From IMG/VR virus record IMGVR_UViG_3300030419_006839, positions 40,852 through 104,851 of that record: a stretch of 64,000 bases of DNA. The stretch is one strand, 5' to 3'. A program made the translations under genes and the position numbers. Of the stretch, positions 12,901-63,605 are shown piece by piece. Numbering within the stretch: the stretch's first letter is position 1; each line of letters starts with the position of its first letter. The notes under the pieces were generated by a model, which saw only the letters and a program-made list of their open reading frames with translations, had not been told where the DNA came from and searched no databases. The stretch is from a virus.

Positions 12901-13914
12901 TTTGAAACATTTGAAACTAGCTTAACTAAATCTTTTGGATCTATGAATAAGACAAATTCAAATTTAAAAAATAAATATAGATCAATTTATGATAGTAATA
13001 ATGACAATGAAGTTGATATTTTTGATTTAGTATTGTTTTTTAGTAAGATGAAGGTTACTCCAGAAATCAGTCCATTTGTTTTTAATAGTTTTAGTAATTC
13101 TGATGAAAGTATATTATTTGAAGTTAAAGATAATATAATATACAAAAAATCAGGTCAACTATTAACTGGGATTGAAGATGTGTTAGAAGGAGATGGTGAA
13201 TCAAACATTGTAGTTTCAACAACAGATCCAGAAAACCCAACAATCAGTGTAAGCTCTGTTTTAAAGTCTTATCCTCAAAATCAAAATATATCAATTAGAG
13301 AAGCAGGAACTGATGATTCTAGAGAGGATTTTTTAAATGTAAAATATGATCATGACAATTCAAAAAGAAATATTATAGACTTATCAGGTAGTTTAACGTT
13401 TACTGATGTCGAGATTGGTTCTTCCTACACAAAGAAGTTAGAGTTAACTAATGTTAGTCCAAATATTGATTATGAATTAACTATTTCTACAATTATAAAT
13501 ACTCCATTTTATGATGAAAGTATGATATACGCACTAGATAAAGATGGAAACACTATATCATCTGATGCTATGCGTTTAGATTTTAGTAAAAATAAAATTA
13601 TAATAAGTCCAGATCAGGTAATAGATATACCTATATCTTTAACTACACAAAACACCTTAGAGAAATTAGATGAAGGTGAAAAAGGATTAGAAGTCAGAGG
13701 AACCAACGTAAGAATACCACAAGTATTATTACTAACAAATGAAAAAATAAGACAAATTTTCTCTCCAAATTCTGAAATAGGTATTTCTAATTCATATCAA
13801 ATTAGAAAAGCATACATTAAAATTGAATTTGTTGAATTAAATTCCTCAAATAATTCAAATAGAAATAAGACCTTTATAGTTTTACCAATAAATACTATAC
13901 CAAAAAATAATTAA
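3958..13914 (+). CDS. Giant (3318 aa) tail tip/adhesin-like virion protein
   Basis: S/N/T-rich beta domains; internal repeats 'TQL.SS....I.V.D......I.ID.E.M.V...S.N...V.R....T...H'; Ig-like segments ('LSFGNINNNQPKSKRIVVKNKG', 'LTFTDVEIGSSYTKKLELTN'); dockerin/EF-hand-like DSNNDNEVDIFDLV. Confidence 0.6.
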   Translation: MAKIPDKEIRENWSLPNLYEDENGNQKTKLKEQESISHYNFNPYGAKVNYDTGEINLAFDNNASSLFNDFIQANYIFSPRYQSPHSLVKDLFKNINSPIVKDENFEEIILKNKEKTWTSLGKVSYLDKNTYPNCLLLVEGTFSNVDNSNSTEVKKLYIAFGDQLFSQDLITGDLKLECRVWGNIYGLEKDTYGNVFIISSLNDECRTNVSDDNSFNTDDNTNPAGLGIVNIYKWCFDKNSFPNVENRLDYNKKLKRILTTYYNGRTDFGSLSDLGFLYNNYSPYQGKIDEDNCNLAKTTVGFFKDNVINCGQYFFPCQSYEYLPKQVSYDGGPTSTKITNTYVELEKLDSKVVETKIGGKEIELNIWNALKAAWNGEDPESIIKEKDYKEIEKIIKENTNTTRLELPSIIGMPNQGFSWFEDFLYIPFDKGSVFGLMRIPTPQVIFSDSVLDTLKLPKPFIKGNTNSSISNCDDDFISVSDVPNYTSYFNMLHTGITWLSSRGFDGKNCGLFSRTNLEVINKNLREGGDGAGDKYSDTYSDADKKTQTKSVNEHENTTLSGNNLTRFYGNRYHNKNMAAGKITEFYGDQSSNSYSGKIVEHSNLIGGGFKPSSTKNYYSFIIDTENVPKRGESGSTDLSLAPTGWTVPANIIHISKPVGINPSSIRKPLTHKLETFIYDSTLQELTNEMVDVLLTYNKSTSSVVPVNYILQAEDSSINTQTSKPNKFGAKTKERFWNMRTSEITPSNDILSYVKRGSESSDPFLIGSANEFSTSWGLGGGVQYGRSDGSHYYQIHRTIIGKKTSTDIHTRTTGIKHTKRFVLNNTRNGNYEYFDSSGTKQNNSESGGALTSVYTNSGSELNFDNSQYNGAEFFCINSSNNSADISLERSTPREVDSSDRNNLKLNDNQIFFNLPNPIHWGDVGSIIIHKNRLYFTVFDYKSTEPHQSWENSDRVDMEVSGKPAVGYELEAGIYCLNISVDSADSHGSSGFSKTNNCTKFTNKVNETIKKLSNDDQYYSNNLNPILENIPHTTTENQASGGSQSLDSGSGSSNYQGTSTSSELNYFKPDEQYDASGSMPITEINPDFTSSPVNKNPKDFPPIQFLLDPSKDSRQVRLKRISHSSYRGEYVEKMSLNRVFSDGGKKRRQLEVSQYSSPRSPFVSGDKVIYLAGNEFWRGSLFSSNVRFNPYSMDGKMLILDCKNTSKENIFFGKASPIDEFTNYVNAKGNNDAMKGFSSNSVTDSSGNTYVVSGKDALHLLSFSDVPKPKQNSSGSFKRKNSGYMLTLIDGKLELSTQANRDFLSKTINYNEELITDGNNFFNFSILKYGNELSTKIPLIDTNKENYYGIISKLASLVDAEFGIENQEPYFRNKDSNMLLSSDFGTSLTPRGGPLDTDNSILNKFLLDSEYTFWYVNGEIVSVYNQAYNGSSTNKIVERGLLGTEVKEHGQNQIVYRMKLYADDKNLISINNYSKDYDNIYNEVRVDFNSKEGFQDSIVVSTNNESSSYDRTFNYSAPFITEGSWAKGIAYRLLNRLSKEKYLIDMSIRINPELKNADFIVVNCGEYNISNKLFQIKSVSHNLTEHITNISAISVEEPTLSLSYYNGSSFVAYNDGIDAGSNKIAGNDETLIIKLTNEGNYDLNISDIFIDDISFKVFRYVNGVKSKEIERNDSDSGFKVGSEKDLTIPVGSSKEFYISFILPQESNFFRELSIVSNLEKNPISHFSIFGSIKSISLDVEGDLSFGNINNNQPKSKRIVVKNKGVNEIKLTNLEIKSGKQGTILNSLDGFSFNKINISNNQSTSINTSNVNITLKGEDSGSGEDFTIIEVVFDPSETVRNGRYRVDKTGIEGNIKLFIDAETTGGTSTTLASSLNSTSQQITLTDSSGFDVGDNIMIDTIEMEIVGKSGNTISVDSRDKHNDSIQTIPKSYNSGTSVINLKNTVSTKRINYSGKINSIPVSARIHANRIKLYGLDNLELPKQDGKYLLDNQITRNRFSAKLKSIKNQLKTNNSNANKIKIEEGRVYIGTDSGYQTGTTVPLFVSDSSNLQYNHDWESKTYKVKVNLTDNDQKNFKLLLHLDKENSGNRHITLNKYEISNSTNTLLARQRRNLENYTFTNVDEDGHIVLNYIFARTDNENLNLEERHNSLFHQDSDTTAVVSGKEYVIYHLGSGTDAEKETRWQNVGFDGVPFEGAYFTANTTTTMTDDAKVTESFINISLNLLHLSVDTYDSKNNSLTTVVDGYAINQWRKALSIDIKTETVFTLDRLSAMNVGDKFAIITETENIDGDVSNYSKEGFDSSNNNQKTDASIKSWQSGLPLSYGGSGNVRYIMVNLQDHKFKAGEQLLIYSSNGGKFDGVHDIHSVSPDIINLYGDSALSPSSGNLNDVLDTNVRVTKVHTIDRIINQNSFVVKDLGREDSTSEITLRNTVNELSTPNKDCNIVLLNDFTKQEGIIIRNEPDIITGTVVGEISELGDYFIKIRIDEDEELFPGGVDLTEENCIKFIGDSNSLFDGYFKYQTPIPIDKDTFKIKLPKLSLLNVAYSTSQKKYYAICKTTKKIDTLKTTDGDESTNREYNPYGLKNIIPFNEGDTVSIEGTSNEEYDNIKSIKINKIHDEIGLLTDGVMESFGGKSGEKTFYVELDLPLDTYSKTQARTQITQLSSSVGSTSATTFSVDDASNISQYDILFFSSSIFNEVEEIVRVTNISSNEITVERGIDGSTAETHNSGDKLFKFDNIISKGFLQKKSPHNGTKLNFVLEASNKQYGLKFSTNTSKNYDSNLATSFSSSQDTFSDGIGIKRAKILSSERDNSKIRIWFDVDTYPTTQLQSSITNSQNNIKVGNTDHISEGEIIKIDNEEMRVTSVSSNTLLMVKRAVNSTSAATHQTSSTVSNVFDSIFSVGENIIIYDTDNQDSHGTWSISGTDGFNYIEVTLGTGDSSFVINRGFIATTKQNLESSSIIKSFDSISLPKKTSSTSGDNICRPFETFETSLTKSFGSMNKTNSNLKNKYRSIYDSNNDNEVDIFDLVLFFSKMKVTPEISPFVFNSFSNSDESILFEVKDNIIYKKSGQLLTGIEDVLEGDGESNIVVSTTDPENPTISVSSVLKSYPQNQNISIREAGTDDSREDFLNVKYDHDNSKRNIIDLSGSLTFTDVEIGSSYTKKLELTNVSPNIDYELTISTIINTPFYDESMIYALDKDGNTISSDAMRLDFSKNKIIISPDQVIDIPISLTTQNTLEKLDEGEKGLEVRGTNVRIPQVLLLTNEKIRQIFSPNSEIGISNSYQIRKAYIKIEFVELNSSNNSNRNKTFIVLPINTIPKNN

Positions 13915-13937
13915 AGTTAGTGTGAGGTTGTCGATAT
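13912..13937 (+). promoter_or_regulatory. Class I (sigma28-like) promoter upstream of dnaE
   Basis: TAAAGTTagtgtgaggttGTCGATAT; same elements and spacing as the other copies. Confidence 0.7.
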
Positions 13938-13940
13938 TCT

Positions 13941-13969
13941 AGTAAAGAAATTGAATTTTACCTGTTATA
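13941..13969 (+). promoter_or_regulatory. Class II promoter candidate upstream of dnaE
   Basis: AGTAAA-N16-TGTTATA (other copies have N17). Confidence 0.45.
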
Positions 13970-14001
13970 TAATATAACTGATAATAACTAAGGAGTAATA
14001 A

Positions 14002-17000
14002 ATGGGATACGTTCCATTACATGTACATTCACACTTTTCACTACTTGATGGTTTAGAATCACCAAAACAACTAATACAGAGGGCTAAAGATGTTGGTATA
14101 GATGCATTAGCCTTAACTGATCATGGTACTATGGGTGGTCTTATAGATTTTTATTTTAGCTGTAAAGAAGAAAACATAAAGCCAATTATGGGTTCTGAAT
14201 TTTATTTTGCAGAAGATAGATTAATTAAAGAAAAAACTGCTCATGGAAATTCTAACTATCATCAAACAATTCTTGCAAAAAACATAGAAGGTTGGAAAAA
14301 CTTAATCACTCTGACTACAGAAGCAGCATCAACTGGTTTTTATAGAAACCCTAGAATAGATTTTTCCTTATTAGAACAACATAATGATGGATTAATAGTT
14401 GGATCTGGTTGTGCTGCTAGTATAATAAGTAAATGTATTGAATCTGATGACTTTTCTAAAGTCAAATGGCTATTTAACTTCTTTAAAAAGAATTTTGATG
14501 GAAGATTTTTTGCTGAATTAACCTCCATAGAAAATATATATGAAAATGGAGACTTAGCCGTAGATCAGAAAAAGATAAATAAATACCTAATTCAATATGC
14601 TAAAGAGTTTGGTATTCCTTTCACAATAATGTCAGATGCCCACTACGCTGAAAAAGAGCATTATGATGAACACGATCTTCTACTTGCAGTTCAGACTAAG
14701 AAAAAACTGAAAGATAAAGATAGATTTAGATTTGGAACTAAAGAAGTTTGGCTAAAAAGTGAAGATGATATGTGGGATTATTGGCATAGAGAAGGTAAGG
14801 ATCATATATCAGAAGATGATTTTGCTACAGCACTAGAAAATACTGTTAAAATAGCAGAAATGACTTCTATTGATTTAGAAGAATATTATAAATCATATCG
14901 TATGCCTAAACTAGATGTTAAAGATGCAAGAGAAGCTCTCTTTAATCGTGCTTTAAACAATAAAGAAAGAACTATGTTAATAAACAGGTTGTCTGACTCA
15001 GAACAATCTAAATATGTTTCTAGGTTAAATCGTGAATTAAATTTAATAGTAGATCAAGGATTTGCATCTTATTTCATGATGACTGCGGATTTAACTGACC
15101 ATATGCGTGAGAATAAGATAATGAAAGGTTTAGCTAGAGGTTCCGCAGGAGGCTCTCTTTTGGCGTATATGCTTGGCATTACCGATATTGACCCTATCAC
15201 ACACAACCTATCATTTGAACGCTTCATGAACGAAGATAAAGCGTCTATGCCCGATATAGATATAGACATAGATGATGAAAAACGACAAGAAATCTTAGAC
15301 TATTTTATAGGTAAATATGGAACAGACAACGTTTCTCAAATAGGAACTAGAATAACAATGCAATCTAAGTTAGCTAGTAAAGATGTTGGTAGAACTTTAG
15401 GTATTTCTTTCGATAAGTTAAATGATTTAAGTGATGATTTGGAAGTCTTATCTACAGTTAACAACTTCAAGGGAACAAAGGAGGAAATAAACAACATTAT
15501 TTCAGGTTTGAATGAACAATTAATCAGTTCAAATCCATCTCAGAATAGTAAGTTAACTAAGAAATTAGAATCTTGGAAAAAAATTAAAAATATTTCTGAA
15601 AAACACCCACAATGGCTACCTATGTCATCTAGAGTGTCTGGAAAACCAAAAGCAATAGGTAAACATGCTGCAGGTATTGTTGTGGCAGATGACTCATTAA
15701 AGAAAATATTACCACTACAACATGCTAAGAATGAAACATTGGTGACTGAGTGGTCTGATGGCCTTTCAAGAAAAGAATTATCTGATGTTGTAAAGGTATT
15801 AAAGTTTGATTTATTGGGGCTTTCTAATTTAGGTATAATTCAGAACACTATTGACCTTATTAGACAGAGACATAATGAAACAAAAAGATTAGATTTAAAT
15901 CTTTCTGACCAAAACATACTAAATTCAATCGTTTTAGATGATCCGTATGTTTTTGACAATTGTTTACCTAATAAATTAATGGGAGTTTTTCAATTTGACA
16001 CATATGCTGCAGAAAGAGTGCTTAATCTTATAACTCCTGAGAATATTATTGAACTTTGTGCATTAAATGCCATGAATAGACCTGCTGCTTTACAGGCAAA
16101 TGTTCCATTTATGTACGCACAGAGAAAAACTGGAAAAACAAAAATAGAATATTCCCATCCATTAATGGAAGAAATATTAAAGGAAACCTATGGATTAATA
16201 ATATATCAAGAGCAAGTCATGGAGATTGCCAATAAGATAGGAGGATTAACTCCAGCAGAAACAGATAAGTTTAGAAAGGTTCTAGTTAAGGTAACTGAAT
16301 CTAATAAAGAAAAAGAAGATAAAGAAAGGATAAGTTTAATTGATAAATTTCAGGTTGGTGCATTAGAGAAAGGAATGAGTCCTGATGACATAGTTTCTTT
16401 ATCAGAAAAGTTAATTTATTTTTCAGGATATGGGTTTAATAAATCTCATAGTAGATCTTATGCCTTATTAGCATATTACACTATGTATTTAAAAACTTAT
16501 TTTTATCCAGAATTTTTAACGGCATATTTAAATAAAAGACCAGAGAATTTAGATAGAGCTATAAGAGAAGCTGGATTCGATATGTTTTTACCAGTAGATG
16601 TGAATCAATCTAATAATAGTTTTATTTTAGATGAAAGTGGTAGAATAAGAGTAGGTTTTTCAGCAATAAAAGGTTTAGGTGCAGTTGCAGTAAAGGAAAT
16701 AGTAGAAAAAAGACCTTTTATGGACTTAGATGATTTAAAAAATAAGGTTGAAAAAAGAAAGGTAAATAAGACTAGAATTTCTGCGTTAATAAAGAGTGGT
16801 GCTTTAACTTCTTTGAAGGTGAAAACCAACCTAGAGTCTGAGTTACAGGTTTTAGGAATACCTCTTTGGTCAATTAAAAAACAACTTTTCTTGATAAAAA
16901 GATTAAAAAATGATCTTAGATTACCTGCTAGAGGTAGTCAGGTTTTAAACAATGAGGATATAGACTACGTTGAAGATGGAACTTCTGTAATTTCTTTAGG

Positions 17001-17214
17001 ATTTATAAATAAGATTGAAAAGAAATTTAAATCTGGAGGATATTTGGCAGAGTTATATGATGGAACTTCATATGTTTCCCTAGTTAAGTATTCTTTAAAT
17101 CAAAATGATACATACCCTAGATTGGGTCAAATAGTATTGATTGAAGGGGAAAAGAAGACATATGCTAAACACAACTCTACTCAATTAATGGTCAATAGGG
17201 TAAAGGGGTTTTAA
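14002..17214 (+). CDS. dnaE: DNA polymerase III alpha subunit
   Basis: PHP motifs LHVHSHFSLLDG and ALTDHG; RGSAGGSL; catalytic PDIDID; KFDLLGL; YGFNKSH. Confidence 0.97.
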   Translation: MGYVPLHVHSHFSLLDGLESPKQLIQRAKDVGIDALALTDHGTMGGLIDFYFSCKEENIKPIMGSEFYFAEDRLIKEKTAHGNSNYHQTILAKNIEGWKNLITLTTEAASTGFYRNPRIDFSLLEQHNDGLIVGSGCAASIISKCIESDDFSKVKWLFNFFKKNFDGRFFAELTSIENIYENGDLAVDQKKINKYLIQYAKEFGIPFTIMSDAHYAEKEHYDEHDLLLAVQTKKKLKDKDRFRFGTKEVWLKSEDDMWDYWHREGKDHISEDDFATALENTVKIAEMTSIDLEEYYKSYRMPKLDVKDAREALFNRALNNKERTMLINRLSDSEQSKYVSRLNRELNLIVDQGFASYFMMTADLTDHMRENKIMKGLARGSAGGSLLAYMLGITDIDPITHNLSFERFMNEDKASMPDIDIDIDDEKRQEILDYFIGKYGTDNVSQIGTRITMQSKLASKDVGRTLGISFDKLNDLSDDLEVLSTVNNFKGTKEEINNIISGLNEQLISSNPSQNSKLTKKLESWKKIKNISEKHPQWLPMSSRVSGKPKAIGKHAAGIVVADDSLKKILPLQHAKNETLVTEWSDGLSRKELSDVVKVLKFDLLGLSNLGIIQNTIDLIRQRHNETKRLDLNLSDQNILNSIVLDDPYVFDNCLPNKLMGVFQFDTYAAERVLNLITPENIIELCALNAMNRPAALQANVPFMYAQRKTGKTKIEYSHPLMEEILKETYGLIIYQEQVMEIANKIGGLTPAETDKFRKVLVKVTESNKEKEDKERISLIDKFQVGALEKGMSPDDIVSLSEKLIYFSGYGFNKSHSRSYALLAYYTMYLKTYFYPEFLTAYLNKRPENLDRAIREAGFDMFLPVDVNQSNNSFILDESGRIRVGFSAIKGLGAVAVKEIVEKRPFMDLDDLKNKVEKRKVNKTRISALIKSGALTSLKVKTNLESELQVLGIPLWSIKKQLFLIKRLKNDLRLPARGSQVLNNEDIDYVEDGTSVISLGFINKIEKKFKSGGYLAELYDGTSYVSLVKYSLNQNDTYPRLGQIVLIEGEKKTYAKHNSTQLMVNRVKGF

Positions 17215-20370: not shown

Positions 20371-20396
20371 TAAAGTTAAATCAAAATAGTCGATAT
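20371..20396 (+). promoter_or_regulatory. Class I (sigma28-like) promoter
   Basis: TAAAGTTaaatcaaaataGTCGATAT upstream of ORF 20437. Confidence 0.7.
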
Positions 20397-29554: not shown

Positions 29555-30439
29555 ATGTTAAATAGTGTAGCAAATAGAGCATATCAAAACTATAAAAAGA
29601 CAACTGCAGAAATTCAAGAAACTATGCAATTATTGGCAGATGGCAAACCTAAACTTAATCCAACAGATCAATCTAGAGTTAATAAAATGAACTCTAGAAT
29701 TAGGACATTAAAAACCGCAAATACAAATGTAAAAGAATCTTTAAACCTTTTGAGATCTGCAGATAGTGGAATTAGTTCTATTAGAAGTGTGGTTTCTAAA
29801 CTAAGAGGTATTGCTCAAGAATCTCAGTCAGAAGAAATTAGTGCCGAAGAACGTGCTGATTTACAGGTAGAGTATGATACTTTATATAAAGAAATAGATT
29901 TCATATTAGACAATACAGAATATGATGGAGTTAAACTACTTGATGGTACGTTTGCAACTAAGAATGTAGTTATTGATTCTGATGATTCAGTTCAAATAGA
30001 TATTGATGATATGACTGAAGGTTCATTACGTATTGGTGCTTATACAAAAACATTAGAAATTGGCGATCCTGAGATTGGTTTGGATAATGGTCAAGGTGGA
30101 GTTTATGCCCCAGGGGATTCTATAAGTATTGTCAAGTCTTCCGTAGACACTGTTGAAAAGGCTCAAGACGCAGTTGCACGTTTAGATTTTGCTTTGGGTA
30201 AGTTAGATGAGGAATCAGTAAAACTAAATTCAAAGGCTCAGAGATTTGAATTTACTACAAGTCATTTAACAAGTATGGTAGGAGTATTGGAAGAATCGGT
30301 TGATACCATCGAAGATTTTGATGAGGCTAGAGAAATGAGTCGTTTGGCACAAGCTCAAATAAGACAACAATCAGCCATTGCCATGATGGTACAGGCACAA
30401 CAATTATCTCAAACTATTCACCAATTACTTAACCAGTAA
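29555..30439 (+). CDS. fliC: Flagellin (divergent)
   Basis: Flagellin_N features (ANTNVKESLNLLRSADSGI; ERADLQVEYDTLYKEIDFILDNTEYDGVKLLDG) and Flagellin_C (DFDEAREMSRLAQAQIRQQSAIAMMVQAQQLSQTIHQLL); RBS AGGAG before ATG 29555. Confidence 0.92.
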   Translation: MLNSVANRAYQNYKKTTAEIQETMQLLADGKPKLNPTDQSRVNKMNSRIRTLKTANTNVKESLNLLRSADSGISSIRSVVSKLRGIAQESQSEEISAEERADLQVEYDTLYKEIDFILDNTEYDGVKLLDGTFATKNVVIDSDDSVQIDIDDMTEGSLRIGAYTKTLEIGDPEIGLDNGQGGVYAPGDSISIVKSSVDTVEKAQDAVARLDFALGKLDEESVKLNSKAQRFEFTTSHLTSMVGVLEESVDTIEDFDEAREMSRLAQAQIRQQSAIAMMVQAQQLSQTIHQLLNQ

Positions 30440-31391: not shown

Positions 31392-31464
31392 TATAACGTC
31401 ACTTTCCCTAAATTATTTACTAAAAAAATAAATCAGTAAAAAGTTTTAACCTATTAACGTTATA
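31392..31464. promoter_or_regulatory. Back-to-back class II promoters (hsp20 on -, thyX operon on +)
   Basis: AGTAAA-N17-CGTTATA at 31421-31392 (-) and 31435-31464 (+). Confidence 0.7.
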
Positions 31465-34097: not shown

Positions 34098-34454
34098 ATG
34101 TATGAATATAAAGCAAAGGTTGTTAAAGTTGTCGATGGAGATACTGTTGATTTTCTCGTTGATCTTGGTTTCGACACATGGAAAAAAGTTAGAGCAAGAT
34201 TGTACGGAATTAATGCTCCAGAAAGTCGTACAAGAGATCTTGAAGAAAAAAAACGAGGATTAGAATCTAAAAAATTTCTAACTGATACTTTATCTAATTT
34301 TGACAATGAATGTATTATTAAAAGCAGAGGGACAGGTAAGTATGGAAGATGTTTAGCTGAAATATTTATCGAAGATTTTAATCCTGAAGTCAGTGTTAAT
34401 CAGCAGATGGTTGATATTGGTTTAGCTGAAGAATATTTTGGTGGAAAACGCTAA
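34098..34454 (+). CDS. Thermonuclease (SNase-like)
   Basis: VVDGDT, RLYGINAPE, GKYGRCLA. Confidence 0.92.
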   Translation: MYEYKAKVVKVVDGDTVDFLVDLGFDTWKKVRARLYGINAPESRTRDLEEKKRGLESKKFLTDTLSNFDNECIIKSRGTGKYGRCLAEIFIEDFNPEVSVNQQMVDIGLAEEYFGGKR

Positions 34455-43120: not shown

Positions 43121-44018
43121 TTTTTTCTCCTTCGTCCTATACTATATAATATCGACAATTTTGAGAAAACTTTAGCCCTTTTTTGAAAAAAAACCACTTT
43201 TTTTTAAATTTATTTTTTCTGGCAATATAGTATTTTTCTTTGATTGGGATGGTTGATGGCGTGGGGGCCATTGCGAGGATGTTAATCCTCGACAATTTTG
43301 TTATAGATTTGATCTACCTTTTCAATTAATAGATTTAGTTTGTGATTTTCTATACGTTTTAATTCTTCTTGCACATTTCCTACATACTTAGCCTGTAGTT
43401 CTTCAATCATATATTCCATACATCCCATAGCATCTAATAATAAAACAAAATTATTCATTACTTTTTTTTCAAAGCTTAAATTTGTTTTATCTTTTAATTC
43501 TCTGTTTTGTTTTCTTATTTGCCATAGGTCATATACTTCTTGATCTTCTTTAGATGGTATTGTGTCATTATTCATTATTGACTCCTTAAGCTGTTGGATA
43601 TTGTTGAAAAAAGTTAATTTCTAATTGTTTATAATCACCATTAGCTTCCTTTTTTTTGATCCACTCTTGTTCTTCATTAACAATTTCTGCTATTTTTTCT
43701 AAAAATTCTAAGTTATTAAACATATGCGGTTGTTCATATATTGATATATTATTTATTTCAATTGGTTTATAACCTTGTAGGTTGATTGTTACATCAACGG
43801 AACTAATCGTGCAATCATCATGTTGATGACCGTAATAATTAAATTCTTCCATAGTAAACATATCTTCGTCAAAATAGTCTATTTCAGGTAAAAAATCTTC
43901 AATCTCAAAAGAATCATTGCATTCTAAAGTTCCAGAAACAAGGCTTGAAACCTCTGTTCTAAAATGGACTTTATTAATAGTAATGTCTTTAGCACTAATT
44001 TCTTGTTTTAATTTTAAA

Positions 44019-44228: not shown

Positions 44229-44853
44229 TACTCACTCCATACTTTAATAGCATTTGATTTAATCTCTGAAACATAAACATCTCCTAAATCATAACTTCCC
44301 CAATTTAAAGGTGATGAAACACCACAAAACCAACGAGCATTTTTATTCTTTGCTTCATTTGTTGGTGATTGCCATTTTTTTAAAACTTTCCAAGTCCATC
44401 CTTCAGCATTTCCAACACCTTTCCATATTTCATATGGTTCGTTTAAATTTCTAGTTTTTGCACAATAGTTTTTCTCTCTTGCCATTCAGTACTCCTTAAT
44501 TCGTTCTTTGTTCCTATTATATAATATCGACAATTCCTAGAAAACTTTAGCCTTTTTTTCAAAAAAAGTGCCTTTTTTTTGATTTAATTTTTTCTGTAAA
44601 ACATTATTACTTTATTATAGGACGTGTTGATGGGCCTGGGGCCATTGATTAGGCTAACATTTCAGATTCCATAATCATCTAAAAAAGTTTGACATATTAC
44701 TTGACATAATTCATCTGTCAGTCTGTCTTTGACTGAAGGTCTATTTGAATTTTCTTGCTCTAAGTCATCGAGGTAGTCATAACATGAATTAGATAGAACG
44801 GTTATAATATCTTCCTGTAGTTGTTCTCTGAGTTCTTTAAGTATTTTCATTGA

Positions 44854-45588: not shown

Positions 45589-45765
45589 TTTATTCCTTTG
45601 TCTTAAGTTTAGGTTAATTGCTTCCTATTATATAATATCGACAATTACTAGAAAACTTTAGCCCTTTTTGTAAAAAAAGTCACTTTTTTTTGATTTTATT
45701 TTTTCCTACAAAGATTGGAATGTTTTGGAAATGGGATGGTGATCTCGCCTACGGCATTGAGAAGT

Positions 45766-46014: not shown

Positions 46015-46434
46015 TTATAAATCCATATGGTAACCGTAATCCTCATCTGTACCAAAACCTGCAGATGCTAATGCTTCGCCATCATCTGAATAATCATCCA
46101 CAGTATTTAATGAATCTGTATCATAAAATGCTTGTTGCCACCATGAATTAACTTGATTTGTTAGTTCCTCATAAATCCTTGCTTGAAGGAATTGAAAAAT
46201 ATTTTCACAACTTGAAATAGAAACAAATCCAGAATCAGATTCAAAACCCAAATCTGTATCATCTTTTAAGTATTCGATATACTCCCAATTTGATGTTGGC
46301 ATTTGACGGTCAATTTCTTCAGTAATTAACCTTTCACTGTCAAAAGTACTAAATTCTTCAGCACTCATGTTATCAATTTCTGATCTAATTTCATCACAAA
46401 TATTTTTTGCTAATCTTTCAACTTTAATAGACAT
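46015..46434 (-). CDS. Ocr-like (T7 gp0.3) DNA-mimic anti-restriction protein
   Basis: Acidic; DLGFESDSGF...FLQARIYEELT resembles T7 Ocr DLEFEDSGL...ILQARIYEQLT (recalled sequence). Confidence 0.75.
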   Translation of the reverse strand: MSIKVERLAKNICDEIRSEIDNMSAEEFSTFDSERLITEEIDRQMPTSNWEYIEYLKDDTDLGFESDSGFVSISSCENIFQFLQARIYEELTNQVNSWWQQAFYDTDSLNTVDDYSDDGEALASAGFGTDEDYGYHMDL

Positions 46435-46830
46435 AAATTAAACTCCTAAAAAAATTTCATCTTGACAAGTTTGACACAAACCAGAAATTCTATATTCTTT
46501 TTTTGATATATCATCTCTGAAATTTAGATTTACTTTGTGTGGTTCTTTTGAAACACAAGAATTGTTAGTAATTGATTCTGTTCTATCAAATAGAGAATCT
46601 AAAAATATTTCAATTGGTCTTGATTTTTTAGTTGGTTTCATAACTTACCTCTATTATATAATATCGACAGTTTCAAGAAAACTTTAGGAAAAAATCAATT
46701 ATTTTTTGAAAAAAACTGATTTTTTTTTCTTCAATTTTTGATTCTTTCTTTTTATATCTGACACCTGTATGTAGATTCAAATCTTCACTTTTTAGCTTTC
46801 TATTGACATTATCTGATCGCTTAAATTTTG

Positions 46831-46980: not shown

Positions 46981-47845
46981 ATTTCCTCTTTACCTCTATT
47001 ATATAATATCGACAATTTTGAGAAAACTTTAGCCCTTTTTGTAAAAAAAAGCAACTTTTTTTTGATTTAATTTTTTCTGAGAATACCATAAACCTGTGTT
47101 ATACCTGCATTGGTGTGTTGGAATACATTGAGAACCTTATACATTCCACCCGTTTAATCTTAAATCGTTTAAATGTGATTGTAAAGGTTCCAATGTATCA
47201 GTATTTACTGTTATTATATGGTTGGTTTCAACGACTAAAACATCGCATTCTTGTTTTGACTTACCAGAAAAAGTATTTATTTTTTTTCTGGTAAATTCAC
47301 GAATGGATACATTTTTATTTATTGCTTTACAAAAGTGTGTTGCTACTTTCATTAGAAACTCCTAACAAAATCATGGAAGTCATACGTTGATAATAATTGA
47401 GTCATTCTTTTTTCTATTTCTGTTGCGTGTATAATATCAGCAAATTTTAGGTTTTCCATTATTCGATGATATGCAACTATTGGAGGAATACTGTTGTCTA
47501 AATTATCATACATTAAATTAAAATCTTCCTTCAATTCTGAAATTTGTTCTTTTGTTAGTTTGTTTTCCCATTCTCCAAGCTTCATTCTTTTATTTAAGCT
47601 ACCGCTTTTTGAGAATGATAACATTGTGTCAATCCTTACCTTTGAGGCTTTTCTGGTTAAATCATTTTTTTGTTCTTTAGTAAATGATTTTGACACACCA
47701 TCTAAAACTTTAGAAATAAACTCTTTTGAAATGTTTACTTGTTGGTTTGTTAGATCTGCTAAATTTTGCATGTTTACCTCTTTTGTATACTATATAATAT
47801 CGACAGCTTTGATGGAAACTTTAGGAAAAAAGTGATTTTTTTTTG

Positions 47846-48001: not shown

Positions 48002-48905
48002 CCTGTAGTTATACAGTTAAGATTAAATCTAACTGACTTAATTTAATAAGTCAGTTAGTTTATTATCCCATAAAATAGTTGACAATCTTGATGCTATTTC
48101 ATATATATGTTCTTCCGCACAATCATTTCCATTTTCGTTTTCCTGAAATTTATATTCACAAAATTCCACATAATTATCATATTCTACCTCTAATAAATAA
48201 GTTAGTATAGTTTGTATATCAATTGATATATCAAAAATTAAATTAGATCTTTCTTGTTCAGTCATTTTCTTCTACTATTTCACTCCATAAAGAAATAAAA
48301 TTTTCAGACTCATAATACATAGATTTATATAGCAAGTCTTGTATTTCATCAATTGGATTACTTGAAGTTTCAATAATCCATCTTGCTATTTTTTCTAACT
48401 GTTTGTCATTGTATGGTTCTTTCATAATTATATACCCATAATCCACTTATCTAAAGCATAATTAAATTTATTCTTTTCTTTTATTGGATCAATTCCAACC
48501 TTATGAAAAGTGTAGTTTACTGAATCATCCATATAGTCATAATACGTTTGTTGATTGTCAAACTTTGGTGATTTTCTCTCATTATTATAAGAATTACAAG
48601 CTTCATTAAAACCATTGAAAATATCTTGAAAAATAGTGTTTTTGGTTGAAAGTTCTTTACCGTTCCAAATTACTTTTGGCATTCTAATATTCTCCTTCAA
48701 ATCTCTCATCTTTAATCATTGTTGCTTGAAATTTTGGGTCTAATTTCATATAGATAGTTTTAGGTTTTGACGGTTGTGCAAGATACATCTTGCCATCATC
48801 ATCAATAAATAAAACCTTAAACCAAATTCCGAGAATTTTAACTTCGTAATTTTCCATATTAGTAATTTACCTCTAATATATAATATCGACAGTTTTGAGA
48901 AAACT

Positions 48906-49067
48906 TTAGCTTTTTTTGATAAAGTTTTTTCCTAAAGTTTCGTAAACTCTTTTCATAAATTTTTCACGATTTTTTCTATATTCCTTAATTCTTTTCTGTT
49001 CTTTAGTTAAACCAATAACATCAATTTTTTCGTGTAAGTTATGAGGGATTGTTTTAATAATATTCAA
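48906..49067 (-). CDS. 53-aa paralog of ORF 50013..50168 (not in the ORF track)
   Basis: TTG start; IPHNLHEKIDVIGLTKEQKRIK...FMKRVYETLGKNFIK. Confidence 0.6.
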   Translation of the reverse strand: MNIIKTIPHNLHEKIDVIGLTKEQKRIKEYRKNREKFMKRVYETLGKNFIKKS

Positions 49068-49786: not shown

Positions 49787-50604
49787 ATTGCTTCCTCTTA
49801 TCTAATCCAGTTTGGGTTATCTTTATAGTGAAATGATTTTTTCCAATCCTCAAATTTTTCTGCTTGTTTGTCTATTTCATAATCTTCTATTGCATCCCAT
49901 AATCCTTCAACTATATCATGGAAAATATTTTTTTCATTTTTTGGCCTTAATTTTCCATTCCAATTAATTTCTAAATTGTTAGTAATCCCTTCTATTTTAT
50001 ACATTGTTATTCCTATTTTATAAAGTTTTTTCCTAAAGTTTCGTAAACTCTTTTCATAAAGTTCTCACGATTTTGTTGATATTTCTTGATTCTCTTTTGT
50101 TCTTTAGACAAACCAATAACATCAATTTTTTCGTGTAATTTGTGGGGTATCGTTTCAATAATTTTCATATTTTCCCTTTGTTCTCTACTATATAATATCG
50201 ACAGTTTCAAGAAAACTTTAGTAGTTTTTTACAATGAAATGTAACTTTTTGATGAATTAAATAACCAATTTTCAACTAGAAACTTATCAATTAGATTATT
50301 TCTATATGCGTTTAGAAATTCCTCATCAGTTACAGATAACAAACAATCATCCCATGCAAAAAAAGTATTTTCACCATCTTCTATTTCATAAACTCCATTT
50401 TCCCTATCTATTTTCGTGATAGCATAATAACGACTTTTTCGGTCTATGTTTCTAGTTGGAATGGTTTTTACGATTTGGCGAATGCTGTGGTTCATAATTG
50501 TATTTCCTCTTATACTATATAATATCGACAGTTTCTAAAAAACTTTAGAAAAAAAAACAACTTTTTCAAAAAATTTTCCAAAGTAAAAAAATAATTTTTC
50601 ACAC

Positions 50605-51774: not shown

Positions 51775-51804
51775 AATAACACAATTATAGATAAAATATT
51801 TACT
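51775..51804 (-). promoter_or_regulatory. Class II promoter
   Basis: AGTAAA-N17-TGTTATT upstream of ORF 51737. Confidence 0.6.
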
Positions 51805-54359: not shown

Positions 54360-54385
54360 TTATCGACTGTTTTTAGTTAACTTTA
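54360..54385 (-). promoter_or_regulatory. Class I (sigma28-like) promoter for the SSB gene
   Basis: TAAAGTTaactaaaaacaGTCGATAA. Confidence 0.7.
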
Positions 54386-54513: not shown

Positions 54514-54543
54514 TATAACGTGATTTATGTTTGTTTATTTACT
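54514..54543 (-). promoter_or_regulatory. Class II promoter
   Basis: AGTAAA-N17-CGTTATA. Confidence 0.68.
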
Positions 54544-54549: not shown

Positions 54550-56187
54550 TTAACTTTCTTGACTTGTTGAAGCTATTTGATTGATTGATAACTGAATATC
54601 ATCAATTTTGTCTTCTAGGTTATCTAATCTATTTTCAGTTTCCTCTTTAGGAAGTGAATAAGATTTAAACATTGCATCTCTCTCACTCAAACTAGCAGCA
54701 ATAGCATCAGTTAGGTCAGAATCCTCTAGTTCTTCTAAACCAGTAGGTAATCCTGGATTTGGTAATTCTAAGCCATTAGAGCCTATTTTAGAGCCTTTAA
54801 GTGTCATCTTAAGGGGTACATCACCCCACTCGACTTCAGGTAGTCCGAATCTATGTTTTCTAACATAATTTATTGTTAAAACACCTTCCATTAATTGTTG
54901 TCTGTCTAAATCCCATTGTTCTTGTTCATCTAAAGATTTTTCCAATCCCCAATCTAAATATACATCTCTATACCCAAAACCACCTTTGTGTCCAATTTTA
55001 GGGTTTGGTAAAGACCAAATCAATTCAGAATTTAAATGATATGCAAAGGTGGATAACTGAGGAATTAAGGCATCTTTTTCAAACTGTTCTTGTTGTTGTT
55101 CTGAGTTAAGCTTACCTGTGTTGGGTGTTACCATACCTAAAACTAATGGTTGCATGTTAAAAACAGACATTATTTGTTCCAACATCCATTGACTATATTG
55201 CTTAAAAGACATTTCACTTGGAGCTAAACCTACTTTTTCTATTTTAACAGATCCTTCACCCTCTCCAGTAGAGATTAATATAGGTCTATGTGGTTTTCCC
55301 CTTAAGTTGTTATCCCAGAATTTTTGATATTCCTGTAATCTTTCTAGGGATACATTATTAAACAATACAGCTAATCTTGGAGTTGCATCATTACCAAAAA
55401 GTGCTGAATTATAGTTCTCAACTCTTGTTGCATTAACTACAGTTTTTGCTAATGTTTCTATTTTTGAAGTCCCATAAGGTGTTCCAGATCTTGGATTCAT
55501 TACCATATATATAAGTTCGTCTATACCATACCAAACACCACTTAAATGACTTGAGTTTTTCTTTTCTGAATCAGTCATAAATATATTGGTAAACCCTCTA
55601 TCTTGATCATCATAATCATGACCAGAGCTTTGAATGTCAGATTTTTCAAAGTAGCATTTATTGAAATTTATAAAATTCCCAGATTTATCTGTATTTAATA
55701 CAAAACTAGGAGAATGGGCAGCATATATTTCTACAGGCATACCAAATTCATCACGAACTATCTCCAAACAACCTGCATCATAAACTAACATATCTCTGTC
55801 AAGTTTTTGTCGAATTGAACTAAAAGATTCTCTACTTGAGTTTGGATTTATAACTAAGTCTGCTAGTTTTTCAATGTGACGCATTTGTTGATCGCTTGGG
55901 TTTGATGCATCATTGTCTGGAGTTGCAATAGGAACTATTTCTGGTGGGATTAAACTTAATCTAGTTACAATTTTATCAACACATGCACGAATCCATGTAT
56001 TTTTTTCATAAATTAACCTCATCTCATCAAAAGTTAAGTAGTCAACAGTGTTTCTTTCAAGCGAAATCCTTCTTTCTTCTCCAATTTCAACCCTTCGCTT
56101 TCTCTTTTTTATTGCGTTGGTTGTATTTAGTTTTAAAGAGGGTCTTTGCATAGAAAGAATTTTATTTGATTTTGTAAAAGAAATCAT
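54550..56187 (-). CDS. Phage portal protein
   Basis: IRACVDKI, DMLVYDAG.LEIVRD..G.PVEIY, PYGTSKIE, EMSF, IMSVFNMQP..LG, LTINYVR. Confidence 0.9.
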   Translation of the reverse strand: MISFTKSNKILSMQRPSLKLNTTNAIKKRKRRVEIGEERRISLERNTVDYLTFDEMRLIYEKNTWIRACVDKIVTRLSLIPPEIVPIATPDNDASNPSDQQMRHIEKLADLVINPNSSRESFSSIRQKLDRDMLVYDAGCLEIVRDEFGMPVEIYAAHSPSFVLNTDKSGNFINFNKCYFEKSDIQSSGHDYDDQDRGFTNIFMTDSEKKNSSHLSGVWYGIDELIYMVMNPRSGTPYGTSKIETLAKTVVNATRVENYNSALFGNDATPRLAVLFNNVSLERLQEYQKFWDNNLRGKPHRPILISTGEGEGSVKIEKVGLAPSEMSFKQYSQWMLEQIMSVFNMQPLVLGMVTPNTGKLNSEQQQEQFEKDALIPQLSTFAYHLNSELIWSLPNPKIGHKGGFGYRDVYLDWGLEKSLDEQEQWDLDRQQLMEGVLTINYVRKHRFGLPEVEWGDVPLKMTLKGSKIGSNGLELPNPGLPTGLEELEDSDLTDAIAASLSERDAMFKSYSLPKEETENRLDNLEDKIDDIQLSINQIASTSQES

Positions 56188-56513: not shown

Positions 56514-57512
56514 TTAATAAAGTTCACTAAGATAGCCAAAATAACCACCGTCCTTTGGTTTAGCATTTGTTTTTATTGTATATATAACACCAGCAATAGC
56601 TTGAATTAAATCATGACTACCACCTGGAGGGTGGTCATATTTGTTTCCAACTCTTTCTAGTTGTCTTAACTCTTTGTGTGGTAGGTTAACTTCACCTTCA
56701 GGTGTTTTAACATTTAATGGATACATATTTATTCTTTTTTCATAAATAGCTTTAATCAACTCATCAAAAGGTTCAGTTGTTCTATCTATAGATAAGGTAT
56801 CGGCATCCATTCCTACAGCTTTCATGTTTTGTATAAAGTCTGCTGATTGGTAACCATCTAAAGTTACCCTATGTATATTATATCCTCTTTTGATTACATC
56901 AAAAATTATTTGTCTAATTGCTATTAATTGAACTGGACTTTCTTTATAACCTTTAAATGATGCTAGTAAATCAAAGGAGACTATTGGTTCTTTTATTTTT
57001 CTCACTCTATTTTGTGCATCTCTTTGTTCTTTTTCTACCCAATCTTCTGCATGACCTACAGCCAAACCTAGTCGATCTTGAGTTAATCCTATATCAACGT
57101 GGCAATATCTTCGTATGTGATCTTGACAAATAAAATCATCTCTAAAAACGGTATTAACTACTTCACCATTTGGTTGTAGGAACGGATTTTTTATAATTGG
57201 ATGTTTAAAATCTTTTAGTTTTTCAAAAGATTTTTCAATAAACTCTGAGTGTTCAATAGCAGGAGCGACTGCATCAATTGGATTAGCACCAAAATCTCTC
57301 GTAGCTAATGCAGGGTTTCTTAGAAACTCATCCATATAACTTTCTATTGTTTGGGTATCTCTCATTCTCCAAGTAGGTGCTTGTATTGCAAGAGATTTGT
57401 CAAATTTAAACATTCTGACATCATAATCGTACTTTTCTTTGACAAAATCTGGATTTAAAGAGGTTCTACTACTATAGTCTTGCTCTAAAGAGAAAATTGA
57501 TTCATCACTCAT
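56514..57512 (-). CDS. Terminase large subunit, C-terminal nuclease part
   Basis: APTW, HVDIGLTQDRLGLAVGH, VTLDGYQS, YDHPPGGSHDL; close to the portal gene. Confidence 0.85.
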   Translation of the reverse strand: MSDESIFSLEQDYSSRTSLNPDFVKEKYDYDVRMFKFDKSLAIQAPTWRMRDTQTIESYMDEFLRNPALATRDFGANPIDAVAPAIEHSEFIEKSFEKLKDFKHPIIKNPFLQPNGEVVNTVFRDDFICQDHIRRYCHVDIGLTQDRLGLAVGHAEDWVEKEQRDAQNRVRKIKEPIVSFDLLASFKGYKESPVQLIAIRQIIFDVIKRGYNIHRVTLDGYQSADFIQNMKAVGMDADTLSIDRTTEPFDELIKAIYEKRINMYPLNVKTPEGEVNLPHKELRQLERVGNKYDHPPGGSHDLIQAIAGVIYTIKTNAKPKDGGYFGYLSELY

Positions 57513-57868
57513 TTAAAAATACCAAAAAGAAATGAGAAAAATCCTTTCTTTTTCTCTTTTTCTATTATTTTTTCTGCTACTTTTTCAGAATCTATCTTAT
57601 ATTCTGAATTTTGTACACGTTCCCTTAAATCCTTCAGTTGTTGTTCTCTATCTGGATCAATTTCATTCTGTTTTTGTATGAAATCTAGGTTTTCCATTTC
57701 TTTTTTTTCGTTTTCACCTGAAAATTCAAAAATAGCTTTAACAATTTCTATTTCTTCATTTGTAAGGCTTTCTAGGTGACTTTTTAATACAAAATCTGTT
57801 CCTTTAGAGATTTCTATTAAATGTTTTGAATTTGTACCCAATTCTTTTGCTAACTCGTAAACTCTCAT
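57509..57868 (-). CDS. IF2_N domain fused to FlgM-like anti-sigma28 domain
   Basis: MRVYELAKELGTNSKHLI...LKSHLESL (IF2_N); DREQQLKDLRERVQNSEYKIDSEKVAEKII (FlgM C-terminal pattern). Confidence 0.72.
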   Translation of the reverse strand: MRVYELAKELGTNSKHLIEISKGTDFVLKSHLESLTNEEIEIVKAIFEFSGENEKKEMENLDFIQKQNEIDPDREQQLKDLRERVQNSEYKIDSEKVAEKIIEKEKKKGFFSFLFGIFK

Positions 57869-57877
57869 TACAACCTC

Positions 57878-58240
57878 CTAAAAGTCGTGCAAATAAATAG
57901 AATTTATTCTTTTTTCTCTTTTTTCTTTACGTAATTTATTTTGTCTTTTCTTGTATTTTTTCAAATCTTTTTTGTGTTCTTCTTTGAAGTCTGAAGCGAA
58001 ACCAACAACCCTATATATTTTTAACATAATAGCAAAAACGGCTACGGCACTTGTTCCACCAACGCTCATTGCAATACTTTCACCAATCTCAGGAAATTCA
58101 TTAAATATAGGAGCAAGTAGTCCCAAAATACCACCTAAACTTGCAAATTTAGACCATGTGGTATCATGAACCCTATCTATTCTCTTATCATACTCCTCAT
58201 CTATTAATTCCTCTTGGTCTTTCATTGCTATTATTCCCAA
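57878..58240 (-). CDS. Membrane protein (2 TM) between the terminase halves
   Basis: Two hydrophobic helices and a basic tail. Confidence 0.55.
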   Translation of the reverse strand: MGIIAMKDQEELIDEEYDKRIDRVHDTTWSKFASLGGILGLLAPIFNEFPEIGESIAMSVGGTSAVAVFAIMLKIYRVVGFASDFKEEHKKDLKKYKKRQNKLRKEKREKRINSIYLHDF

Positions 58241-59025
58241 AAATCTCTTCTATTACCACTAATTGCTATTTCTCTCATTTTCCTTACCGCAAAAGAATCT
58301 GTAGATTTTGGACTAGTTATAACTATTATTTTATAGTGATCTGGAAACCTTGTCTTACAACTACCTAAGAGTGAATTGTATATCTCATTTGCTGCGGATT
58401 TGTTCATATTATCTACAAACCAATCTGCTTCATCGAGTATTCCTTGTTTTGTATTATAACCCAACCAAGCAGTTGATTTTGAATGACCACAAACTCCAAT
58501 TATGTTTTTGGGAAAAATTATTCTATCTTTTGTATCAATATAGTATGGAACCCTGTGTCCATCTAAACTAGATAGTTCAAAAGCACTTTCCACTTCAAAA
58601 AAACACTTTGAATGTTTTAACTTTTCTCTAAGGTCAGTAAAAACTACATCCCTGGCTTGGTGTTGGTTTGTTGCCATATTTAAAAAATAAATGTGAGTTC
58701 CTACCGCTAAACTACTATATCTTTGTGGGTTTTTTAACATTGCAGTTTGCCAGATACCTCTACACTGATAAATAGATGAGTTAAAACTCTTTCCAGAACC
58801 TTTTCCTAGTACCAACCAAGCTTCTCTAACTTCAGGATCATCTACGTGCTTTAATAGACTTAAATTAGCATCTGAAATATCTAGAGATAAGTCCATATAG
58901 TCTTCACTCAGTATAAATTCCTCCATATCGACATTTTTTGTTTCATAATCACCATCAGATTGTGAAACTTCTATCCTTTTTTTTAATTCATCAGCAAAAT
59001 TTCCTAATAAAGATCCAGAATTCAT
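58231..59025 (-). CDS. Terminase large subunit, N-terminal ATPase part
   Basis: Walker A LGKGSGKS, NMATNQHQA, Walker B GILDEA, motif III ITSP. Confidence 0.85.
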   Translation of the reverse strand: MNSGSLLGNFADELKKRIEVSQSDGDYETKNVDMEEFILSEDYMDLSLDISDANLSLLKHVDDPEVREAWLVLGKGSGKSFNSSIYQCRGIWQTAMLKNPQRYSSLAVGTHIYFLNMATNQHQARDVVFTDLREKLKHSKCFFEVESAFELSSLDGHRVPYYIDTKDRIIFPKNIIGVCGHSKSTAWLGYNTKQGILDEADWFVDNMNKSAANEIYNSLLGSCKTRFPDHYKIIVITSPKSTDSFAVRKMREIAISGNRRDFWE

Positions 59026-62760: not shown

Positions 62761-62790
62761 AATAACAAGTTTTTTTGAGTTTGTTTTACT
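62761..62790 (-). promoter_or_regulatory. Class II promoter heading the nuclease/packaging operon
   Basis: AGTAAA-N17-TGTTATT. Confidence 0.62.
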
Positions 62791-62804
62791 TGAAAATTTT
62801 TCAT

Positions 62805-62830
62805 TAAAGTTATTTATTATTGGTCGATAA
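62805..62830 (+). promoter_or_regulatory. Class I (sigma28-like) promoter of the sigma-like gene
   Basis: TAAAGTTatttattattgGTCGATAA. Confidence 0.72.
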
Positions 62831-62864
62831 TATAAAGTATAAACAAATTAAGAAAGGAAAAATA

Positions 62865-63605
62865 ATGAATAAGCAAACAATTTTAAAAGCATATAACGGT
62901 GATACAATAGCAAAAACTCAAACATACAACCACTATAGAAAAGTCTTGAAAAGTATGCTATATGGGTATAATTTTGATTTAGATCCTTCAATTTGTTCAG
63001 AAGATGTTGCTCAAGTGGCATTACCTGAAGCAATGAAGAGATTTTTTAAGAATTTAGACACTAATCAGATTGATAAGTTTGATTCATTTGCTAAATCTAA
63101 TATTAATTTTGCAATAAAGCATTTCATACAGTCTCAGAAGTCAAAAAATAATGGTCGAAGGTTGTTTTTTAGTATGGATGCACCTAAGAAATCTTCAAGT
63201 GTTGAAAAAAGTGGTGATTTTTTCTATCATGAAGACATAAAGAATGAAAGATGGTCTATGGAGGAGAAATTAGTTTATGGGGATACTAAGGATGAAATGT
63301 TGAAGCTGATTTCTAAAGCACAGGTTAAATCTCAGGGTTTTAAATCATTAAATCCAAAGTTTACTGAGATTGCAAAAGAGGTTATTTCTGGAAATAGTTG
63401 TAGAACCAACTTAGCTAAAGATTATGATCTATCAATATCATCTATTACTAGGTTTATTACAGAAATTATGTATCCGTGTTGTTTAATGGCTATTGATAAG
63501 CATACAACGTATAAAAGAATGGGTCAACACCTAAATAAAAGTGCAAAAGGGTTAATCGTACAGGAAAAGGGTACGGAATTTGCTAAGAAAGTAGGTTATA
63601 TTTAA
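62865..63605 (+). CDS. Putative phage RNA polymerase sigma factor (divergent)
   Basis: 'KAYNGDTIA', region-2-like 'EDVAQVALPEAMKRF...KFDSFAKSNINFAIKHFI', 'FSMDAP', HTH 'NLAKDYDLSISSITR'; RBS AAAGGA before ATG 62865. Confidence 0.65.
   Translation: MNKQTILKAYNGDTIAKTQTYNHYRKVLKSMLYGYNFDLDPSICSEDVAQVALPEAMKRFFKNLDTNQIDKFDSFAKSNINFAIKHFIQSQKSKNNGRRLFFSMDAPKKSSSVEKSGDFFYHEDIKNERWSMEEKLVYGDTKDEMLKLISKAQVKSQGFKSLNPKFTEIAKEVISGNSCRTNLAKDYDLSISSITRFITEIMYPCCLMAIDKHTTYKRMGQHLNKSAKGLIVQEKGTEFAKKVGYI

Follow-up and report, generated by a model that had tools for sequence, protein, structure and literature searches.

Sigma-28-like promoters, a divergent sigma factor and an FlgM-type module in an uncultured marine phage: parts of a possible transcription programme based on the host flagellar sigma system

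We analysed a 64,000-nucleotide (nt) stretch of phage DNA, hereafter the window, which comprises bases 40852-104851 of a 104,851-base IMG/VR contig (IMGVR_UViG_3300030419_006839). Within it we describe two repeated promoter-like motifs, termed class I and class II, together with genes for a divergent sigma-like protein (P0001), a small protein carrying the sigma-28-binding module of FlgM (P0002), and a flagellin. The contig has a guanine-plus-cytosine content of ~30%, an intergenic share of ~8% and a completeness rating of ~73%, with 27% of the genome absent. This is an uncultured, marine, large phage of the lytic type, and its portal is a distant relative of the SPO1 portal (~24% identity to the portals of SPO1-like Bacillus phages). 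Genes of the window lie on the plus strand up to ~39 kb, on the minus strand from 39.4 to 62.7 kb and on the plus strand again from 62.8 kb, while the major head and tail genes are found in the first 54 kb of the contig. The class I sites of the window, and three genes that follow such sites, are listed below in window coordinates, which are used throughout unless the contig is named; ORF denotes an open reading frame and aa amino acids.

13912..13936 (+): class I, in tandem with class II, before dnaE
14002..17214 (+): DnaE-type DNA polymerase III alpha
20371..20395 (+): class I before small genes and a Metallophos nuclease-like gene
34452..34476 (+): class I before denV
34510..34998 (+): denV-type pyrimidine-dimer glycosylase
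42036..42060 (-): class I, clustered copy with spacer dyad
42216..42240 (-): class I, clustered copy
43150..43174 (-): class I before the ATP-dependent DNA ligase gene (42251-43120)
44525..44549 (-): class I, clustered copy
45636..45660 (-): class I before the GP88-family gene (44854-45588)
46015..46434 (-): ocr-like anti-restriction gene of the class I regulon (phrog_2568, E 2.8e-6)
46662..46686 (-): class I, 21 nt before ORF 46438-46641, which is followed by the ocr-like gene
47007..47031 (-): class I, clustered copy
47798..47823 (-): class I, the only copy with an N12 spacer
48884..48908 (-): class I, clustered copy
50196..50220 (-): class I, clustered copy
50523..50547 (-): class I, first of the clustered array
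54361..54385 (-): class I before a 292-aa gene (53413-54291); site kept in relatives L001 and L004
62805..62829 (+): class I before the phage sigma gene

Seventeen oriented class I copies were identified in the contig, all of them facing a downstream gene and 15 of them intergenic; 16 fall in the window (15 with an N11 spacer and one with N12) and one lies further upstream. The exact form TAAAGTT-N11-GTCGATA occurs 15 times in the window, against about one expected for the pattern with up to two mismatches and a maximum of five in 100 shuffles. Distances to the start codon are mostly 21-77 nt, and 14 positions of the boxes are invariant in all 17 copies. An earlier note on this DNA had placed such promoters before early genes, dnaE, ssb, denV and the sigma-like gene. 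This holds for the early genes, the sigma-like gene, and dnaE and denV, both of which were identified here, and fails for ssb: profile searches identified none, and the 292-aa gene, tried as a candidate, gave an AlphaFold2 (AF2) model with a predicted local distance difference test score (pLDDT) of 38.6, too low to use.

Promoter recognition by sigma-28 is conserved across phyla. The published consensus is TAAAGTTT-n11-GCCGATAA (PMC2859248), with a general form TAAA-N15-CCGATAT and tcgatat variants recorded for flagellin genes (PMC3720852). The bases contacted specifically are -13C, -12G, -11A and the CTAAAG of the -35 element, and a single substitution at -14 is reported to be tolerated (PMC12784957). 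In class I, the -35 element expected as TAAA(GTTT) appears as TAAAGTT in 17 of 17 copies and as TAAAGTTT in the clustered ones, and the -10 element expected as (G)CCGATA(A/T), with its CGA core, appears as an invariant GTCGATA(w). The expected spacing of TAAA-N15/16-CCGATA is likewise reproduced, as TAAA-N15-TCGATA in 16 copies and with an N16 spacer in the remaining copy as well as in the relatives L001 and L004. Over the two sigma-28 octamers, 15 of 16 positions match at the right spacing, the sole deviation being T for C at -14. All of the specifically contacted bases are present, including a C before TAAAG that agrees with the Pseudomonas aeruginosa -35 sequence TCTAAAG. Moreover, L001 and L004, whose portals are 62% identical to that of this phage, keep TAAAGT(T/A)-N12-GTCGATA in front of the homologous gene. 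The early region shows no excess of sigma-70-type sites (74 against an expected 82). Taken as a whole, the match to the sigma-28 consensus makes it probable that class I is read by a sigma-28-type factor.

At 42.0-50.5 kb (42036-50547, minus strand), 11 copies are arrayed before small ORFs; they share a cassette of ~60 nt with an A-run/T-run hairpin, the promoter with its spacer dyad, and TTATATARTAG downstream. The dyad, AGTTT-N5-AAACT with 5-6 base pairs, overlaps the -35 box and the spacer and is confined to these clustered copies; an early-gene repressor might use it as its operator, or it may be no more than a trace of recent cassette duplication. In the six dispersed copies the two boxes are kept, the spacers are free and the dyad is lacking; such conservation of the boxes alone is what a -35/-10 pair would be expected to show. 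Most copies, and the relatives too, have a TATAAT-like hexamer after GTCGATA. We rejected it as a sigma-70 -10 element for ORF 46438-46641, to whose start codon it is too close, since the transcript would lose its ribosome-binding site. A 20-nt match to Campylobacter phages was also set aside, as it consists just of the TATAAT box and ribosome-binding site and is at chance level. One of the few good sigma-70-type promoters lies at 50822-50850 (TTGCAA-17-TATTAT with TG), before ORF 50908-51222, whose 104-aa product could be a regulator; repeated TTTGCAAAT flanks this promoter, which is located where divergent genes meet, upstream of the early array.

The class I regulon comprises the ocr-like gene, the ATP-dependent ligase gene, the GP88-family gene and many small ORFs without known function, as well as denV, dnaE, the DnaB helicase and primase genes, the conserved 292-aa gene after the portal and the sigma-like gene, for which class I is the only evident promoter. 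An ocr-like gene and a small-gene cluster are contents typical of the earliest class.

In addition to class I, we identified a second motif, AGTAAA-N16/17-YGTTAT. The contig has eight copies, where shuffles gave 0.31 (maximum 2); all eight are intergenic and oriented, which confirms the placement of this class before thyX, hsp20 and the packaging operon by the earlier note. The class II sites of the window are:

13941..13968 (+): class II (N16), in tandem with class I, before dnaE
31393..31421 (-): class II towards hsp20 (30791-31207)
31435..31463 (+): class II before the TonB_C-like gene, thyX and a deoxynucleoside monophosphate (dNMP) kinase gene
51776..51804 (-): class II before ORF 51261-51737
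54515..54543 (-): class II directly past the portal stop codon, in tandem with class I
62762..62790 (-): class II of the exonuclease-to-portal operon, which includes the FlgM-like gene

Class II stands in tandem with class I before dnaE, DnaB/primase and the 292-aa gene. Class II sites without a class I partner precede hsp20, the TonB-like/thyX/dNMP-kinase operon (whose first gene, 31490-31813, encodes a 107-aa TonB C-terminal-like protein), ORF 51261-51737, a structural-region gene of 109 aa, and the exonuclease-to-portal operon, with RecU, terminase and the FlgM-like gene in between. The downstream box has the form (T/C)G-n-TAT(A/T)(A/T), resembling an extended -10 element, and AGTAAA lies ~3 nt further upstream than the sigma-70 -35 position. 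The pattern bears a loose resemblance to the extracytoplasmic function (ECF) promoter type, xGxAAC-N16/17-CGT. Class II may be read by the phage sigma, or by host sigma-70 aided by a phage activator in the way of T4 middle promoters. After three of the eight class II sites (those of dnaE, DnaB/primase and the exonuclease operon; 13974-13986 and 62745-62757 in the window and 7809-7880, minus strand, in the contig) comes another box, ATAACTGATARTA, which is commoner than chance and may be a 5'-leader or operator element. Where this phage has its tandem class II/class I pair after the portal, relatives L002 (7740-7830) and L003 (~3590-3680) have a transfer RNA (tRNA) gene, and this post-portal region in L002 and L003 carries the extended -10 boxes TGTTATAAT / TGTTACAAT.

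The FlgM-like gene lies in the packaging operon, between the two halves of a split terminase gene:

54550..56187 (-): portal protein
56514..57512 (-): terminase large subunit, nuclease half
57509..57868 (-): P0002, 119 aa: IF2_N, FlgM C-terminal sigma-28-binding module, hydrophobic tail
57878..58240 (-): P0003, predicted protein with two transmembrane segments, with P0002 between the terminase halves
58231..59025 (-): terminase large subunit, ATPase half

Residues 1-48 of P0002 match IF2_N and residues 65-103 match the Pfam FlgM family (PF04316; 30.9 bits against a cut-off of 25). The NCBIfam model TIGR03824 matches as well (E 2.6e-4), over profile positions 57-98 only and with 21.7 bits against an equivalog cut-off of 40.75. 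What had been called an FlgM-like gene is therefore upheld for the C-terminal ~40 residues and not as a full-length FlgM, IF2_N standing in place of the disordered N-terminal part with the export signal. HMMER aligned P0002 to residues 49-85 of Aquifex FlgM (1rp3_B) and 77-107 of P. aeruginosa FlgM (9wsf_B). In the P. aeruginosa structure, FlgM V77, I80, I84, V96, A97, L100, L101, E104 and R107 are reported to contact sigma-28, and FlgM 61-107 is by itself enough for a crystal complex with sigma-28 (PMC12784957). The corresponding residues of P0002 are L78, L81, V85, V97, A98, I101, I102, E105 and K108, in which all nine contact positions of the two-helix module are in register and kept or conservatively replaced. 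We regard binding of P0002 to host sigma-28 as somewhat likely. The terminase large subunit is split in two ORFs both here (56514-59025) and in L002 (3648-5684), and the contents of the conserved split vary, with P0003 and P0002 in this phage and one unrelated 73-aa ORF in L002; the gap looks like an insertion hotspot. P0003 has a very weak, non-significant match to the FlhB/YscU export-switch family (E 0.09).

Downstream of the class I site at 62805..62829 lies the gene for the sigma-like protein:

62865..63605 (+): P0001, 246 aa, divergent phage sigma-70-family factor

P0001 was predicted to be sigma-like in the earlier note, and its fold agrees with this, while profile membership (Sigma70_r2 or Sigma70_r4) was not found in searches that gave no Pfam or PHROG match. 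The AF2 model has a mean pLDDT of 60 (70-87 in the N-domain), every top Foldseek match is a sigma factor, and sigma domain 2 superposes on many sigma groups over ~88 residues (VIA Z 9-10.7, root-mean-square deviation 2.2-2.5 Å). The best NCBIfam match is FliA, at an E of 0.085 that is far from significant, and the nearest Atlas clusters hold viral Sigma70_r2 proteins. A HMMER scan of 1.8 billion representatives returned one homologue at 25% identity; none was found by word index, in viral contigs, or in cultured phages by tblastn, and phmmer and hmmsearch comparisons with FliA, RpoD and other sigma ORFs of five genomes gave no signal. On the model, P0001 is a very divergent sigma-70-family factor whose subgroup the fold does not fix. 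In place of the group-3 arginine (R80, W434-equivalent, which contacts -12G) P0001 has N and two relatives have S or T, in a MAFFT alignment with bona fide FliA whose 16% identity makes the comparison weak. Moreover, the model contains no sigma-3 domain, which reads the extended -10. Both points argue, though weakly, against P0001 as the reader of the class I -10 box. The 2.6-kb metagenome contig that is the only one with a P0001 relative has neither the class I nor the class II motif. One complex prediction job for P0001 with P0002 scored 0.01, which we count neither for nor against binding. Because the FlgM module is so canonical and the phage sigma so divergent, P0002 would suit a canonical host sigma-28 better than the phage sigma.

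The window also encodes a flagellin, as had been claimed, with both of its domains above the cut-offs (Flagellin_N, E 2.7e-14; Flagellin_C, E 7.8e-13):

29555..30439 (+): phage flagellin (Flagellin_N and Flagellin_C), without a class I or II promoter upstream

Two adjacent peptides (29347-29535 and 30440-30688), which had been described as YjfB-like, do not bear out that description: they have no Pfam or NCBIfam match, and just their C-terminal ...GTIIDIYA ending is reminiscent of YjfB.

A diderm host is suggested by the gene content, because the phage encodes a TonB_C-like protein and a GH108 endolysin with a PG_binding_3 domain. An NfuA-like gene searched against genome contigs gave matches of 38-51% only, from mixed phyla; the Atlas neighbours of the flagellin are likewise from mixed phyla and point to no host. 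No DNA-level match to cultured phages was found, and the portal and DnaE have distant cultured relatives only. Neither tRNA genes nor matches to Rfam families were found in the window. In the contig, a near-consensus sigma-70 promoter (TTGCAA-17-TATACT), belonging to neither class I nor class II, lies at 1137-1204 before a 468-aa gene and the major head genes; since the head-gene block has this promoter, the late class is not accounted for by the class I or II motif. An iron-sulfur/redox run at 23902-25766 (4Fe-4S ferredoxin, glutaredoxin, an IscA-like protein and an NfuA-like fusion of IscA and NifU) is an unusual auxiliary set for a phage. A LAGLIDADG endonuclease gene within the packaging operon (60252-61340) and a T5orf172/MUG113 (GIY-YIG-type) gene on the opposite strand (51988-52539) are likely mobile homing genes.

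We propose a two-step transcription programme built on the host flagellar sigma system. Host sigma-28 would read the 17 class I promoters and drive the small early genes, the ocr-like gene, ligase, denV, dnaE, DnaB/primase and the phage sigma gene. The eight class II promoters would then be read by the phage sigma, or by host sigma-70 with the help of a phage activator; under their control would be nucleotide metabolism, hsp20 and the recombination/packaging operon, and on the replication genes they would act in tandem with class I. The class II operon would in turn yield P0002, in which the FlgM two-helix module is combined with an IF2_N domain in place of the export region, and P0002 would trap host sigma-28, closing class I and the host late flagellar genes. 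The parts list and logic of the circuit in the earlier note fit what we found, less its YjfB and ssb items, and this circuit is the best-fitting reading of most facts, every functional step of which we infer. The full circuit, with class I under host sigma-28, class II under the phage sigma and closure of class I by the FlgM module, is a serious possibility that falls a little short of probable. More tentatively, the lytic programme might be gated by the host flagellar checkpoint: early genes would fire only with free sigma-28, when the hook-basal body is finished and host FlgM exported, after which the non-exportable FlgM module would re-brake the early class and host flagellin.

Several observations weigh against this circuit. 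The FlgM match covers ~40 residues of a charged helical segment and stays below the NCBIfam equivalog cut-off, searches for homologues of P0002 or of its FlgM segment returned near-identical proteins only, and the P0002 slot of L002 holds the unrelated ORF. Fourteen invariant positions in 17 copies are more typical of promoters for a phage-specific factor, and class I is missing in front of the phage flagellin gene. The link between class II and the phage sigma is conjectural. No host was found by our searches, and a phage-borne FliA could sit in the absent part of the genome, since the contig is ~73% complete. We found no paper on a phage that relies on a minor, checkpoint-controlled sigma for its early genes, nor any on a phage FlgM or on sigma-28-dependent phage promoters.

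The chief rival would be a self-contained pair, in which P0001, or a canonical FliA encoded in the unsampled 27%, reads class I, the sigma gene is positively autoregulated and the FlgM module acts as its brake, with the early start coming from weak sigma-70 sites or a virion-delivered protein. The class I promoter of the sigma gene, the invariant box positions, as in phage-specific promoters, the incomplete contig and the FliA match of P0001, for all its lack of significance, would each accord with this. However, P0001 lacks a Pfam sigma match, the group-3 arginine and a sigma-3 domain, and class I is absent from the 2.6 kb of the only contig with a relative. The motif, moreover, equals the consensus universal among bacteria and recurs in relatives, whereas P0001 is almost without detectable homologues; a canonical FlgM module is likelier to fit a canonical sigma-28; and the arrangement has a start-up problem, because no good sigma-70 promoters are seen in the early cluster. 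We consider it unlikely, and host sigma-28 as the reader of class I is favoured over P0001, the alternative given in the earlier note, because P0001 is without sigma-28 hallmarks.

Comparably unlikely, in our estimate, is that P0002 is a host-directed effector. Sigma-28 would again read class I, while the FlgM module would silence the host late flagellar genes (for example to stop flagellin synthesis or to block superinfection by way of flagella) and early shut-off would come from elsewhere, for instance from a repressor acting on the AGTTT-N5-AAACT dyad. The dyad does occur in the clustered early copies only, overlapping their -35 boxes, and the FlgM gene, inserted between the terminase halves in this lineage specifically, resembles a moron. 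Yet the dyad may merely reflect the recent duplication of the ~60-nt cassette, and the two roles are hard to separate, because any effective sigma-28 trap silences the phage's own 17 class I promoters.

There is a small chance that P0002 is no anti-sigma factor at all and belongs instead to a broad family of small phage IF2_N proteins with variable tails, acting in DNA packaging, in DNA metabolism or at the membrane, with class I and II read by other factors. Small IF2_N-headed proteins that end in different C-termini are encoded by ten viral contigs, in one case within a replication module; P0002 itself has a hydrophobic tail and is placed between the terminase halves beside a membrane protein, and its match lies in a short lysine/glutamate-rich helical segment. 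Against this, two independent FlgM profiles and two solved FlgM chains align with the same 40 residues in register, with nine of nine contacts conserved. Finally, it is very improbable that class I is not of sigma-28 type and serves as a site for a phage or virion RNA polymerase, or as an operator beside an AT-rich sigma-70 -10: the TATAAT-like hexamer, the spacer dyad with its 3-nt centre, reminiscent of hairpin promoters, and the presence of giant ORFs without known domains invite such a reading, but TATAAT is too near the start codon for a -10, a hairpin promoter or virion RNA polymerase finds no support when the dispersed copies have no dyad and the giant ORF matches tail fibre only, and chance is unlikely to have produced a 15/16 octamer match with the correct spacing.

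Phage temporal programmes are textbook examples of sigma replacement and anti-sigma action, and to our knowledge those that are known start from the housekeeping sigma. The proposed programme shares its promoter boxes and spacing, the FlgM contact residues and a flagellin gene with the bacterial sigma-28/FlgM checkpoint (Salmonella and E. coli; P. aeruginosa, 9WSF/9WSM; Aquifex, 1RP3/1SC5). It differs in that the phage promoters drive early and replication genes rather than flagellar genes, that the sampled phage genome has no fliA, that the phage flagellin has no such promoter, and that the phage module lacks the exported N-terminal region of bacterial FlgM and has an IF2_N fusion and a hydrophobic tail. 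Bacillus phage SPO1, in which early promoters for host sigma-A are followed by gp28 and then gp33/gp34, is likewise large and myovirus-type with a distantly related portal, and resembles this phage in its many strong early promoters before small host-takeover genes, its early-class phage sigma gene and its distinct second promoter class. In contrast, its early promoters are of the housekeeping type, whereas those described here are of the flagellar-sigma type, with a shut-off proposed to act through an FlgM-type anti-sigma, and P0001 has no detectable sequence relation to gp28 or gp34. As with T4 AsiA/MotA, G1 gp67 and P23-45 gp39, a phage sigma-binding protein would close early promoters and hand the polymerase to the next class. 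T4 also has tandem early and middle promoters on replication genes, and class II, with its upstream box and (T/C)G-n-TAT -10, could be activator-dependent in the manner of T4 middle promoters. However, AsiA, gp67 and gp39 hit the housekeeping sigma and have unrelated folds, whereas here the module would be borrowed from a host anti-sigma for an alternative sigma.

If this reading is true, the phage would have put together its developmental switch from a borrowed host sigma/anti-sigma pair, and the success of infection would be tied to the motility state of the host. This would bear on marine phage ecology, on flagellotropic infection and on a possibly greater vulnerability of motile cells. Moreover, a non-exportable FlgM on a carrier domain would represent a compact natural inhibitor of sigma-28, usable as a tool.

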